DNA of 63,994 nucleotides, counting the filler, from Stramenopiles sp. TOSAG23-3 (taxonomy: Eukaryota): NCBI GenBank assembly GCA_900128585.1. It is 5 parts of 5 records of this genome, joined end to end, with 100 filler letters (N's around TTAATTAATTAA, not from the genome) between each part and the next. Parts side by side here need not be neighbours in the genome. Positions count along the whole stretch, not along the records: positions 1 to 13,139 come from LT642640.1; positions 13,240 to 26,349 come from LT642641.1; positions 26,450 to 39,553 come from LT642642.1; positions 39,654 to 52,752 come from LT642643.1; 1 more part is not named here. One strand, given 5' to 3'. This document shows positions 12,128-46,082 of this stretch, piece by piece. Positions within the stretch are counted from its first letter, which is position 1, and each line of letters opens with the position of its first letter. Both the position numbers and the translations under genes were made by a program. Under the pieces are notes generated by a model, which had not been told where the DNA came from, made no database searches, and was given only the letters and a program-made list of their open reading frames with translations.

Positions 12128-12281
12128 CTCCGAAGTTGTACGCTTAAAACACATAAAAATTCTGCTCTTACTTTGTATCTCATTTAAGATCTTCTTATTC
12201 ACACATAAAATCATGTATCATATGAAAAAAAAACAAAATATATAGTATGTTTTAAGATAGGATATTTTATTTTTTATATAT

Positions 12282-12325
12282 TAGGGTACGACGAAGCTAA
12301 ATTTAATTACTTAAATAACAGCCAA
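12282..12325 (+). mobile_element. Short dispersed element copy (family A)
   Basis: TAGGGTACGACGAAGCTAAATTTAATTACTTAAATAACAGCCAA, flanked by TTTTATATAT at 12272-12281 and 12326-12335. Confidence 0.7.
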
Positions 12326-12492
12326 TTTTATATATCATATCGCTATCATACGCATATATAATTTTTGTTTCTAAATGACAAGGAAGAAAAACTATTAAGG
12401 TACACTCATAAACTTATCATTTACGATACCCACGAAAAACACACTCGGAGCACTCGACAGGCATGTGAAAAAAATATGTACACATCTTGCGG

Positions 12493-13139
12493 CTAATATA
12501 ACCCCCCTCCATATCCACCGTAGCCCCCGTAACCACCTCCGTACCCCCCTCCGTACCCACTTCCGTACCGAGACCTTTCACCACGGTCTTCGCCCATCCC
12601 TTGGTCATCTAGTATTGGGTAGGCTTCTTCCATGGCTTGTCGGTTCACCATTCGCTGCTCCCTTGTGAGGTCCTGCGACCTAGGTCCTTTCAACCGTAAC
12701 TCTTGCTCTATAAAGGCGGTTACAAACGGGTTTTCCATCTTTTTCAAGATCCACTTGTACAAATAATACACGGCCACGGCGCCTAGGGACCCGCCCAAGA
12801 GGTACCGCCAAATCTTGACTTGCAACCGCTTCTGGTCCATTTCCGCCTCGGTCAGTTCCCCCATGTCCTCGCCCTGAGGGCCTATCCTTCGGTCTGGGAT
12901 TGGCATGGTGCCAAGAAGTTCCCCAATAAACTGGCCAAGGTAGCCGATGGTCATCGTTAGCATTCCCGCCGATTGCCCGATGCCTTGGCACATCATCCCC
13001 ACCATTTGCCCTATTTGCGTGGCGTACATGACCGATGCGTTTAAGCTCATCAACCACTCCGACCCACCCCCCATCATTCCCATTCCGCCCCCGTACATCC
13101 CCATCATTCCCATTCCGCCCCCGTACATCCCCCCCAACG
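12493..13139 (-). CDS. PEX13: PEX13-like peroxisomal membrane protein (5' truncated by contig end)
   Basis: G/M/Y-rich repeats (GGMYGGGMGMM) followed by an amphipathic W..SL..V...GQ..G segment and a TM helix, resembling plant-type PEX13 without an SH3 domain. YGG-rich C-terminus. Confidence 0.55.
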
Positions 13140-13239
13140 NNNNNNNNNNNNNNNNNNNNNNNNNNNNNNNNNNNNNNNNNNNNTTAATTAATTAANNNNN
13201 NNNNNNNNNNNNNNNNNNNNNNNNNNNNNNNNNNNNNNN
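13140..13239. other. Artificial contig-join linker
   Basis: 100 nt of N with a central TTAATTAATTAA (stop codons in all six frames). Confidence 0.95.
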
Positions 13240-13335
13240 TTCTTCTTCTTCTTCTTCTTCTTCTTCTTCTTCTTCTTCTTCTTCTTTCTTCTTCTTCTTC
13301 TTTCTTCTTCTTCTTCTTTCTCTTCTTCTTCCTTC
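13240..13335 (+). repeat. (TTC)n microsatellite
   Basis: Seen directly in the sequence. Confidence 0.9.
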
Positions 13336-13719
13336 ATCGGGTTGTTGTTGTTGTTGGTGTGGTACGTATATTATTATAGAGCTATTTACAAATATATTAT
13401 ATGTTGTGGTGTTGGTTGAAAAGAGAGAAAAAAAGAAAAAAGATCAAAAACATATCTTCAATTTAATAAGTACTCCTCTATACTATATTCATGTAATAAA
13501 GTAATATTATTATTATATTATTAACAACGACGGATGGCCACCCCTTCTCCTTGTATTTTTTCTGTATCTGCCTTTCGATATACAAAAGAGAAAGGAAACA
13601 AGTACAATAGTGAGTTTGAAAATTCCATTCGTCTGTAGATGGCAGATCAGTGAACAATTCAAAAAATTGAACACTTTGAAAATTTTGTTCTTTCTTGTTT
13701 CGTAAAGGTGTCCCCGATT

Positions 13720-43056: not shown

Positions 43057-43181
43057 AAAATGGGCGCGTGCGCTCACCGCACCGCGATCCGTGGCCACAT
43101 TCTCGTAAAGTACTTTCGTTATGAAAAAACAAATTATATATGATAGTATGTTTTAAGACTCTCATTTTAATGATATCATAC

Positions 43182-43206
43182 ATTAAATAACAGCCAATTT
43201 TCTTGT
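43182..43206 (+). mobile_element. Heavily truncated short element copy
   Basis: ATTAAATAACAGCCAATTTTCTTGT, flanked by the 17-bp direct repeat TTTTAATGATATCATAC at 43165-43181 and 43207-43223. Confidence 0.7.
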
Positions 43207-43345
43207 TTTTAATGATATCATACTAAATAAAAAATAATTATATGATACTAAATAAAAAGCAAAATGTAAGAATCTTTACTTCCTTCTTGTACTACGTTCT
43301 GTTGTATGTGTGCGTGCAAAAAACACCCCTGCCCCCGCTGCACTA

Positions 43346-43969
43346 TTAGTCGTTGCCGTCTCCTTTTTCGCTTTTCGGGGGCGGCACAGAAAATCGCTCT
43401 ACGCCAGTTGATTGCTTGCAATAGTCCGTTTTGTTCAATTTCAAAATTTCAGTCCACGCAAACAGCTCTTCATTCGGGTCACTAGACAATTTGCGCATGT
43501 TCTCTATCCTGATTTCCCGAACGCAAACCTCCGGGGGAAAATTTTTCACCAGCACGTCACGTGACCTATAGTTCTCCTGTTGAACACAGACTTTCCCAAT
43601 AATTGCAACTGTATCCCCCAGGTGGTACATAGCTCGGTGCTCTTCCATTGCTTGGTATTCGTTCCAAAAGCATAGGCAATGGGCAAATCCCGTGCCATCA
43701 TCTATTGTGTACTTCGACACCTTCCCAAACGATTTGATTCGCACAATTACCCCGGTCACTTCAACCATTTGGATCGGACGGTAAGGGCCGAGACCGACCT
43801 TTAAAAAATGCGCATTCTTAAACCCCTGGGCGCAGACCAGTTTGTCTATTTGAAAGGCAAATATTTTCGCGTGCCCCCAGTACAACGGATCTAACCCCCA
43901 GCAATAAGGCTCAAGCAACCGTTCCGAGGTCTCCCCAAGGCTTGGATTTGGCGCAGAAATCTCACTCAT
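43346..43969 (-). CDS. STN1: CST complex subunit STN1 (OB-fold only)
   Basis: WGLDPLYWGHAKIF, PIQMVEVTGVIV, YTIDDGTG..CLCFW and DPNEELFAWTE. Confidence 0.82.
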   Translation of the reverse strand: MSEISAPNPSLGETSERLLEPYCWGLDPLYWGHAKIFAFQIDKLVCAQGFKNAHFLKVGLGPYRPIQMVEVTGVIVRIKSFGKVSKYTIDDGTGFAHCLCFWNEYQAMEEHRAMYHLGDTVAIIGKVCVQQENYRSRDVLVKNFPPEVCVREIRIENMRKLSSDPNEELFAWTEILKLNKTDYCKQSTGVERFSVPPPKSEKGDGND

Positions 43970-45209
43970 TTTTGCCGAATAATTATTGTTTTACCGTACT
44001 TCGCCCTCCCCCCCCCCTATGGCATTTCTATACGTAAACCTTCTAGACTAATACAACCCACTTCCAATTCACTGTGTTTATCCACTCACTACCCCAGGAA
44101 AAAAATAACCAAAACTTGACGATAAATCCGGTATAAACTTTTCTATGCATGCATTTAAACCTCCATTCTTCCGCGAGACTATTCAATTGAAAAATTGTTC
44201 TTCAAAGCAGACTTTATAGTCGTCTATATATATACTAACATCTTCTATTATTATTATAAATTATTTTCTTCGATCTTTTTTTTTGGACGTTTCCGTAGAT
44301 AGAGTTTTGGGCCACCAAGTCGTCTTGATCAATAAAATGTTAATGATGTGCTCTCGCTCTCATTGTGTGATGTTGTTGTTTGTTGTTGTGATTATGATCT
44401 GGGATCTGGTGGGGGAGGATGGTGACAAGAAGAAGAAAGAAAAAATCAGAAAGAGCTTCTTCTTCTTCTACGAGGCGTAAGGCGGCGTACGAGGCGAGGC
44501 GTACGACGCGTACAAAATGAACGAAATATTTATACGTAGTATTAAAGAATATATAAATACCATTGTGGTAACTGGGATAGACCACCACATTCAACATTTT
44601 TTCAGAAGAAGTAATTTTTTAGAACTAAAATAAGAAGAAAGAAGAAAAGAAAAAATTTTAGTCTTGAAGAAAGCTGATGAAAAAAATAAAAAAAGTAAAA
44701 TGTATTCTAATTGCTTAAATAAGTACTATTATAGAGTACTAGAAATGGATATTTATAATACCTTTATTTTTTTATAAAAAAAATGTTGAAGAAGAAAAAA
44801 AGAAGAGGTTTTGTGCGTGACAATTCCAAATGCTCTGCTTATGTTATTTAATAGAAACAAAGGTGAGCTATAATATTAATATTTTTTGTTTTGTTTTCAA
44901 AGAAGAAGATATCATCACATCACATCACACCACACCAGACGACGAACGACAATGAAAAAATAATATTTAATAAAATTAATACGAGGACACTACACATCAC
45001 ACCACTACCACCGGGTAAAGTGTGGTAGTGCGCAGTCGAAGTACACAGTCATAGTTCCAATGTATATAAATAAATGTTCAAGGAGAACATGAAGAGAAAG
45101 CTATTGAAAATACAATTTAACAATTCCAGAGACGAAGACACCTCGTATGGATATCTAGAGTCTAGGTGGCAAGCACGTAGAACGATTTTATTAGGGATTG
45201 AGTGTGAAC

Positions 45210-45839
45210 ATGGGAGGCATGGATCGGTATGGGGGTATGAAAAAGCGAAGGCACACTTTCCCCCCTCGCCCCGCGAACAACGCTGGCTGTAGTGATGCTT
45301 TGGGCAATGGAAACGCAGGCTCGATTGCACAAAACGGTAATGGCGATTCCTCCGTGGACCTGCGTGCAAAGTACAAGGCCTTCCTGGTAAATAACAAGAA
45401 CAAACGACAGGCAGCGCACAACGCAAAATGCCCAAAGTCGCCTCGGAGCGAAAGTTTGACTCGGTTCAAACAAATGCAACACCAACTTTCGGAGCACATA
45501 AAAGCTCTTATAAAGAAAAATTTCCTCGAGGGCGCGGAAAAAATCAAAAGGTCAAATTTGTCTGAGAACCAGAAGCATCAAATGTCACAGAGGCTACTCG
45601 ACAGGCTCAACTTCCAACTGACTCGCGCGTACCTTGTCGAATTAAAGAAGTTAAAGTCGAAGTTTGCAGAAGCATTATTTTACGATAATGCAGTAAAACG
45701 GAAAAAAAATAGAGGCAGGACGATGTTCCAGCCTTTCTTGTTCGAGATCAAGGAGATTGATGCCCGTCAGGACTCGAATAGTTCTGGGTGTAGGGAGACC
45801 TGCCATTCCAGGTGTTACAAGAGAGCAAACTCCAGGTAA
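45210..45839 (+). CDS. Hypothetical basic protein
   Basis: ATG at 45210, ~209 aa, lies in a GC-richer island convergent with the kinesin gene. No recognised motif. Confidence 0.55.
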   Translation: MGGMDRYGGMKKRRHTFPPRPANNAGCSDALGNGNAGSIAQNGNGDSSVDLRAKYKAFLVNNKNKRQAAHNAKCPKSPRSESLTRFKQMQHQLSEHIKALIKKNFLEGAEKIKRSNLSENQKHQMSQRLLDRLNFQLTRAYLVELKKLKSKFAEALFYDNAVKRKKNRGRTMFQPFLFEIKEIDARQDSNSSGCRETCHSRCYKRANSR

Positions 45840-46082
45840 ATTTATCCAGGGAGATGGCTTCGTGTTATCAGCCAATTATCTGTTTTTAATGAAACGTACT
45901 ATGATATATCGTTATGCATTTTGGTAAGTACTTTGTACGTGATAAAATATCAGCCAATTTTTCGTTTTTAAATAATGATATCATAATAAATAATATTCAT
46001 AACTTCTGTTTTCATGCATGCGGCGATTTCTTTTGATGGAACAAGAAACTCCGTGGGGTATGGCCGCATTTGGCATTCTTAT

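Follow-up and report, generated by a model that had tools for sequence, protein, structure and literature searches.

Short repeats in the gene 3' flanks of a MAST-4-type stramenopile are very probably truncated copies of a LINE-like retrotransposon family

MAST-4 flagellates are among the ocean's most abundant uncultured bacterivores. The DNA analysed here, a stretch of 63,994 bases from Stramenopiles sp. TOSAG23-3 that we call the window, joins five contigs through N44-TTAATTAATTAA-N44 linkers at 13140, 26350, 39554 and 52753, and consists of long, intron-poor open reading frames (ORFs) in alternation with AT-rich spacers. One window protein has a metagenome twin at 100% identity and also a cluster of 89%-identical sequences with a member named 'Stramenopile-MAST_4'; judging from this similarity, the source organism is an uncultured marine stramenopile of the MAST-4 type. 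In the spacers, a repeat with the end ...AACAGCCAATTTTCTTGTTTT is present as about 15 copies or fragments, every one of them in a gene 3' flank. They are given below by position and strand; subfamilies A to C and the metagenome loci (numbered with L) are described further on.

2026..2050, plus strand: degenerate copy, tail only (AATAGCCAATGTTCTTGTTTTT), located in a convergent spacer; a weak match (blastn to three subfamily representatives, E 0.013-0.037; nhmmer, E 0.25).
5815..5870, minus strand: internal fragment of subfamily C, lacking the tail, in a convergent spacer (blastn to positions 133-185 of the L101 copy, 84% identity, E 5e-8).
12282..12329, plus strand: subfamily A copy of about 48 nt that stops at the first T run, 100% identical over 50 nt to the L041 copy and flanked by the weak repeat TTTTATATAT.
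23525..23619, minus strand: subfamily B internal fragment (23525-23561, abutting an N gap) together with a degenerate tail (23582-23619), both by blastn.
23732..23796, minus strand: subfamily A copy of about 65 nt, with an orthologous copy at 95% identity in locus L106.
28415..28472, plus strand: subfamily A copy of 58 nt, 48 nt past the stop at 28367, with target-site duplication (TSD) ATAAATAAACA.
30063..30132, plus strand: subfamily B-like copy of 70 nt, with TSD TGTGTCATCAAT.
38922..39007, plus strand: subfamily A copy of 86 nt, the first in a nest of four, with TSD TATGATAAGCTTT.
39021..39066, plus strand: short copy of the tail, CAGCCAATTATTTTCTTGTTTTTTTT, which faces the tail of the copy that follows (blastn, nhmmer).
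39072..39201, minus strand: variant subfamily A copy of about 128 nt, the longest in the window (blastn to the L075 copy over 128 nt, E 8e-29).
39221..39287, plus strand: subfamily B copy of 67 nt, with TSD TAATTTTATTTT, which was not among the repeats of the initial annotation.
39332..39397, plus strand: subfamily B internal fragment (blastn, E 6e-10).
43182..43210, plus strand: tail-only copy of about 25-29 nt, with TSD TTTTAATGATATCATAC.
45866..45892, plus strand: degenerate tail copy; a weak match (blastn, E 0.035).
45942..45973, plus strand: degenerate tail copy, in an TTTTTCGTTTTT variant also present elsewhere (blastn, E 0.003).

The initial annotation of this window, made from the sequence alone, had reported a recurring repeat, and the repeat is real and non-random. 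In the window CAGCCAATTTT has 14 matches at no more than one mismatch against 2.65 expected, a number that none of 100 shuffles reached, and the 21-22-nt tail pattern has six exact matches against 0.00 expected. Three of the 14 matches (15248, 22939 and 27348) are due to chance, since they lie inside ORFs and have no further similarity. Searches by nhmmer and blastn with longer relatives found again each copy on the initial list, and blastn added the pieces at 2026-2050, 5815-5870(-), 23525-23561(-), 23582-23619(-) and 39332-39397. Two features of the earlier description did not survive: a consensus of about 80 nt is not the unit, as the 39075(-) copy reaches about 39201 (128 nt) and others extend to 340 nt or beyond 1 kb, and the copies do not share one consensus, those at 30063 and 39243 belonging to subfamily B.

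Six window copies have direct repeats at their two sides, at the following positions.

TTTTATATAT, a 10-mer: first at 12272, second at 12326.
ATAAATAAACA: first at 28404, second at 28473.
TGTGTCATCAAT: first at 30051, second at 30133.
TATGATAAGCTTT: first at 38909, second at 39008.
TTTTAATGATATCATAC: first at 43165, second at 43207.
TAATTTTATTTT, a new 12-nt repeat: first at 39209, second at 39288, bracketing the 39243 copy.

All five pairs that had been reported earlier are in place. The words of 11, 12, 13 and 17 nt among them, each with exactly two occurrences in the window, are convincing; the low complexity of the 10-bp TTTTATATAT, and its overlap with the element's own TTTT, make it weak. 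Both TTTTATATAT and TAATTTTATTTT occur three times in the window. Convincing direct repeats of 11-17 bp thus accompany five of the six copies.

To extend these observations, metagenome contigs were scanned with the tail pattern, giving at least 133 loci with at least 141 unique tails; all counts outside the window are among the matches listed. Together with six copies from the window, the 141 tails make a set of 147 unique copies. The same scan of viral_contigs gave no matches, and L106 is the only one of the listed loci that is orthologous to the window. Enough flanking DNA for a TSD search was available for 128 of the 147 copies, and the control was an identical search moved 35 nt downstream. 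Exact repeats of at least 10 nt linking the 3' junction to an upstream site were found for 39/128 copies versus 2/128 in the control, an enrichment of about 20-fold, and at 9 nt or more the numbers were 53 versus 6. About 37 of the 39 cases are independent, since the L025 repeat (25 nt) is a local duplication and L015 and L116 are the same locus. TSD lengths vary from 10 to 17 nt, and the inserts between them from 24 to about 340 nt (median body 33 nt plus a 21-nt core). Taken together, the constant 3' end, the variable 5' truncation and the TSDs bear out the proposal of target-primed retroposition.

Removal of the inserts gave 38 reconstructed empty sites. No two of these are alike; they are rich in AT and have in common only a weak T-rich/A/T pattern at the position of the bottom-strand nick. 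The family is therefore not one that inserts sequence-specifically into a single repeated target. A T stands at the TSD start in 30/39 cases, a count that is partly an artefact of the TSD extension procedure. Several insertions are nested within older copies.

Alignment of the tails at their 3' ends revealed at least three subfamilies with only the last ~40 nt in common. Subfamily A, the main type in the window, comprises 29 of the 141 copies, subfamily B (window 30063 and 39243) 24 and subfamily C (the window fragment at 5815) 8, and the remaining 80 are too short to assign or of other type. Homology anchored at the 3' end runs from 21 nt up to about 340 nt in A, 300 nt in B and 258 nt in C. 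The label 'T-tailed' in the initial annotation was overstated: the terminus is the fixed sequence ...CTTGTTTT(T) and not a homopolymer. T4-6 CTTG follows 152/187 TAACAGCCAA sites, a count biased by the search pattern. The whole 3' untranslated region (UTR) measures about 110 nt and closes in a fixed module of about 40 nt, ...TAAWTTTAATTACTTAAATAACAGCCAATTTTCTTGTTTT(T). A stable RNA structure in this UTR was ruled out, as it folds worse than its shuffles (z +1.88). Within the subfamily A 3' UTR there is also a telomere-repeat-like stretch, AGTTAGGATTAGGGTA, for example at window 38932-38946 and 39125-39139(-).

Upstream of the shared module, the homology in A, B and C enters an open frame that ends about 105 nt before the tail and carries a common peptide motif. 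The 141-codon frame in L024 matches four longer proteins, including P0141 (776 amino acids (aa), from a cluster of 116 members). Another member of this cluster, P0144 (NCBI MBT3565203.1), has 1689 aa and lies on a 5554-nt contig. A tblastn search with P0144 found collinear coding fragments directly upstream of the tails in L024, L041, L020 and L059, the L059 copy (aa 1323-1673 of P0144, >1.3 kb) being the longest DNA copy. Further coding fragments are present in L029 and L010, the longest in L029 (258 aa, 45% identity). As the homology is unbroken from the tail through the UTR into an ORF that bears a reverse transcriptase (RT; see below), the window copies are the 3'-UTR ends of a coding element, namely its last 25-128 nt; the 39072..39201(-) copy extends to the last codons of the element ORF. 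In L030, at 410-865(-), a subfamily C copy shows a tandem duplication of a terminal coding unit of about 70 codons. P0144 itself is filed publicly as a hypothetical protein of a Gammaproteobacteria metagenome-assembled genome, and its contig is most likely a mis-binned eukaryotic one.

This continuity bears on the origin put forward in the initial annotation, in which the repeats are a non-autonomous mini-retroposon similar to short interspersed nuclear elements (SINEs), or the retroposed 3' end of a small RNA, possibly a product of RNA polymerase III (Pol III), moved in trans and having its own unit of about 80 nt. The window copies are indeed all 128 nt or shorter and none is protein-coding, 80 of the 141 copies elsewhere are too short or otherwise unsuited for assignment to a subfamily, and the terminal T runs resemble Pol III terminators, at the first of which one window copy stops. 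However, no common 5' end lies near 80 nt, where lengths instead form a continuum of 24-340 nt with some copies beyond 1 kb, and the homology runs on into the ORF of an RT-bearing protein. Rfam gave no match at gathering score in the window and none at E≤1 in the representative loci L041, L001 and L101, which also dismisses known small RNAs such as small nuclear or spliced-leader RNA, and ARAGORN found no tRNA-like part in five loci. With no Pol III-type head, no defined 5' end and a body that enters an ORF, SINE identity was rejected, and we consider a mini-retroposon or captured small-RNA end very unlikely. The initial annotation had advised looking for a longer element with an RT and this 3' end, and the search succeeded with the P0144-type ORF.

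The RT assignment of P0144 comes from its relatives. An exhaustive phmmer search with aa 300-1450 returned 1619 matches at E≤1e-3, among which the long distant ones align to aa ~355-560 with E values of 1e-11 to 1e-16. Out of 150 listed matches we checked the 16 that have at least 577 aa and match this stretch; Pfam places RVT_1 at the aligned stretch in 16/16, above gathering score in 14. In addition, RVT_1 accounts for 27/30 named neighbours in the Atlas (score 0.96), and P0144 contains the RT motifs GIRPIAIGETLRR, QGDPIG, FADD and LLGIPI. Downstream of the RT, P0144 and 24 relatives show, by eye, CPC...HFIGC followed by PHNRMED, Q(A/P)DG(L/I)T, WDV and KGQKY. The order described for R2 is a CCHC motif and then a restriction-like endonuclease (RLE) with an H-containing helix, (P/A)DG, a second acidic residue and K..KY (PMC4838377); the Cys/His and nuclease-like region of P0144 matches this order, KGQKY corresponding to K..KY. 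With Pfam on the whole of P0144 at E≤10, the sole match is a sub-threshold zf-primase at the Cys/His motif. Atlas neighbours of the nuclease region are unnamed. Pfam detected no apurinic/apyrimidinic endonuclease (APE) in P0144 or the 16 distant relatives, and no N-terminal zinc finger or Myb domain in P0144. The C-terminus is acidic and Ser-rich. Read from sequence, the ORF would thus encode, in order, a divergent RT, a Cys/His motif, a region with R2-like RLE motifs and the acidic, Ser-rich C-terminus, and the autonomous element would measure at least about 5.3 kb with one ORF of at least 1689 aa.

A protein-coding source is also what would be expected if the repeats were processed retro-copies of mRNA from a cellular multi-copy gene, made by the machinery of another retroelement, and the Ser/Asp-rich C-terminus, for which there is no Pfam family, would not be out of place in such a gene. 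Against this stand the RT region in the same protein, the lack of poly(A), and three diverged ORF lineages with the same terminal 40 nt, as for recognition in cis by their own RT; we find this explanation scarcely credible. The family displays homology to RTs, a 3' end that stays constant while 5' truncation varies, and TSDs of variable length. We therefore propose that the repeats are very probably 'dead-on-arrival', severely 5'-truncated copies of a non-LTR (non-long-terminal-repeat) retrotransposon family, similar to long interspersed nuclear elements (LINEs), of MAST-4-type genomes, rather than the 'mini', non-autonomous units first supposed. The element's RT would recognise the terminal module, since the module is near-identical while the ORFs have diverged to about 45% amino-acid identity. 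The U-rich RNA end may pair with an A run at the nicked target, and target-primed reverse transcription would then start at the 3' module and usually abort within tens of nucleotides. A complete element would then consist of a P0144-type ORF and about 110 nt that close with ...CAGCCAATTTTCTTGTTTT, bracketed by a TSD.

Several observations weigh against a LINE-like origin. No single full-length element with both ends was seen among the copies, and tblastn of P0144 found no RT-coding fragment in the window. Pfam reports no RVT_1 in P0144 at E≤0.1 or at E≤10, and because this direct scan is negative the RT assignment is transitive. Searches of PDB, by sequence with P0144 and by profile with the nuclease region, gave no matches, and the AlphaFold model of the nuclease region was unusable (predicted local distance difference test score (pLDDT) 41.6), so that the endonuclease call rests on motifs read by eye. 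An exact TSD of at least 10 nt is absent from 89/128 testable copies, and no presence/absence pairs (empty alleles) were found among the at least 133 loci. As for the context of the copies, 57 of the 147 have no flanking ORF within the available DNA, and ORFs of at least 120 codons, not real gene models, stand in for genes in the counts given below.

Among known retroelements, the nearest resemblance in architecture is to the R2, NeSL, CRE and Utopia lineages of RLE type, which likewise have one long ORF with a central RT, then Cys/His, then a nuclease-like region. Utopia elements are described as lacking poly(A), as having a defined 3' end and as varying in their 5' junctions and TSDs (PMC4640811), and the MAST-4 family shares each of these traits. 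In contrast to the RLE-type lineages, which are mostly site-specific (rDNA, spliced-leader, U2), the MAST-4 family is dispersed over many AT-rich 3'-flank sites; furthermore, its RT is too divergent for a direct Pfam match and its RLE fold is putative. With APE-type, L1-like LINEs it has in common a constant 3' end, random 5' truncation, TSDs of variable length, nesting, and an AT-rich target that starts with bases matching the run at the end of the element. Unlike those elements, it has no poly(A) tail and no detected APE domain, its copies are much more severely truncated (median around 55 nt), and they keep to the 3' flanks of genes in a compact genome. SINE-LINE pairs with stringent recognition similarly include sequence families that have only the terminal ~40 nt in common, which implies recognition of that module by the RT; the MAST-4 families, however, are autonomous lineages that have diverged from each other (identity between A and B ORFs about 45%) and not Pol III-headed SINEs. 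In the passages of the MAST-4 literature on retrotransposons and transposable elements that our search covered, no description of such a family was found. Judged by sequence, the family appears to be previously undescribed, and its placement near the RLE-type lineages is tentative.

The most striking property of the copies is their position relative to genes. The initial annotation placed them just downstream of genes, which holds in the window and much more strongly in the set of 147: 36 copies lie in convergent spacers, 22 in tandem spacers and 1 in a divergent spacer, while copies with one flanking ORF are on its stop side in 22 cases and on its start side in 3. Six copies are inside an ORF, several of which are probably chance or tail-only matches without further homology. 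Based on the spacer lengths in the window (convergent 3163, tandem 2424 and divergent 7396 bp), 14.4 convergent, 11.0 tandem and 33.6 divergent copies were expected versus the observed 36, 22 and 1 (chi-square P-value 5e-17). Of the copies in tandem spacers, 19/22 lie closer to the stop. A copy is a median of about 106 nt away from the nearest stop. In the window, the 8-nt tail motif is present in 5/10 convergent spacers bounded by two ORFs, and the bare 8-mer in 1/7 divergent spacers, at a site that has no blastn or nhmmer match to the family. These results demonstrate that the 3'-flank excess is real.

Such strict 3'-flank location could also be expected of a functional 3'-end cassette, that is, a signal for poly(A) addition or termination, or an insulator acting in both directions, under selection and with mobility incidental. 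The module does have an AAATAA-type hexamer, CA and a U/GU-rich stretch, and its terminal 40 nt are conserved across subfamilies. A strand-specific signal should nevertheless be in sense orientation. Relative to whichever gene has its stop closest, the copies show no strand bias or a slight antisense one (32 sense versus 48 antisense, P-value 0.09; in tandem spacers 13 versus 9), and this speaks against a poly(A) signal or any other function tied to one strand. The idea of a sense-strand 3'-UTR element, for which 9/11 window copies in sense had spoken, was ruled out by the same numbers. Arbitrary 5' cut points, nesting and decay of copies, as well as the half of the two-ORF convergent window spacers that do without the tail motif, further count against a selected cassette, and we judge it highly improbable.

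Under the retrotransposon reading, local sequence preference does not explain the 3'-flank bias: a weight matrix derived from 33 empty sites outside the window finds target-like sites at equal density in convergent, divergent and tandem spacers (134, 141 and 161 per kb), which are equal in AT content as well (0.67-0.70). As to the cause of the bias, the odds are about even between integration targeting of termination zones, self-nesting included, and selective loss of promoter insertions; the copies close to stops in long tandem spacers lean slightly to targeting. Targeting is favoured because target-like sequence is equally dense in promoter spacers, yet only 1/59 two-sided copies is there, because 11/22 tandem-spacer copies are in the first quarter of the spacer, by the stop codon, and because copies cluster about 6-fold within 300 nt (another tail lies within that distance for 49/141). 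That the LINE-like family actively integrates into termination zones of protein-coding genes, as 'safe-haven' targeting, is a possibility that we put forward tentatively; to our knowledge, this mode has not been described for non-LTR elements. Dictyostelium TRE elements are position-specific retrotransposons near tRNA genes in a compact genome. The MAST-4 family is like them in accumulating in a narrow class of gene-free 'safe' sites of a gene-dense genome, and unlike them in lying by the 3' flanks of protein-coding genes, not Pol III genes, and in that its targeting is putative. Targeting might act via a reader or tether within the first ~330 aa of P0144, or via termination-linked DNA structures or self-homing into older tails. 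Within a length band of 928-2956 aa this N-terminal part has no relatives. Its residues 1-35 (…WEFTVGKITEIIHRDNNVPLAGVRWEG…) we take, by eye, to be chromodomain-like, with no Pfam match and no support from a tool.

The family thus provides a concrete, active-looking retrotransposon with a searchable 21-nt signature that marks gene 3' flanks in genomes and metagenomes, and it explains a protein cluster so far labelled 'hypothetical'. If the bias is due to targeting, it would add to the known ways in which retroelements maintain themselves in gene-dense genomes; if it is due to selection, it would give a clean measure of the lower insertion tolerance of promoter as compared with terminator spacers. 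What makes it of interest is how very cleanly its copies keep to 3' flanks, in an uncultured protist of ecological importance.

A second repeat family, with the end ...GAGAGTCTTAAAACATACTATATAATTTGTTTTT, occurs in the window at 9247-9259(-), 12225-12260(-), 23657-23735(+) and 43126-43160(-) and at 26 more sites in the loci, with a body of at least 90 nt in L025, L017, L097 and L008. It too is found in gene 3' flanks and often abuts copies of the main family; probably this family is a retroposon as well, one whose fixed end is rich in T. The convergent spacer that holds the 23734(-) copy also contains, adjoining that copy at 23798-23846, a perfect GC-rich palindrome, T7-AGTAGAGCGCGCTTTGA / TCAAAGCGCGCTCTACT-A7, with a T run and an A run at its sides, which resembles a bidirectional hairpin terminator. 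Finally, the window ORF at 18416-23404(+) encodes 1662 aa with about a dozen W...GKVFYYN..T..TQW..P repeats that have, by eye, the look of WW domains.

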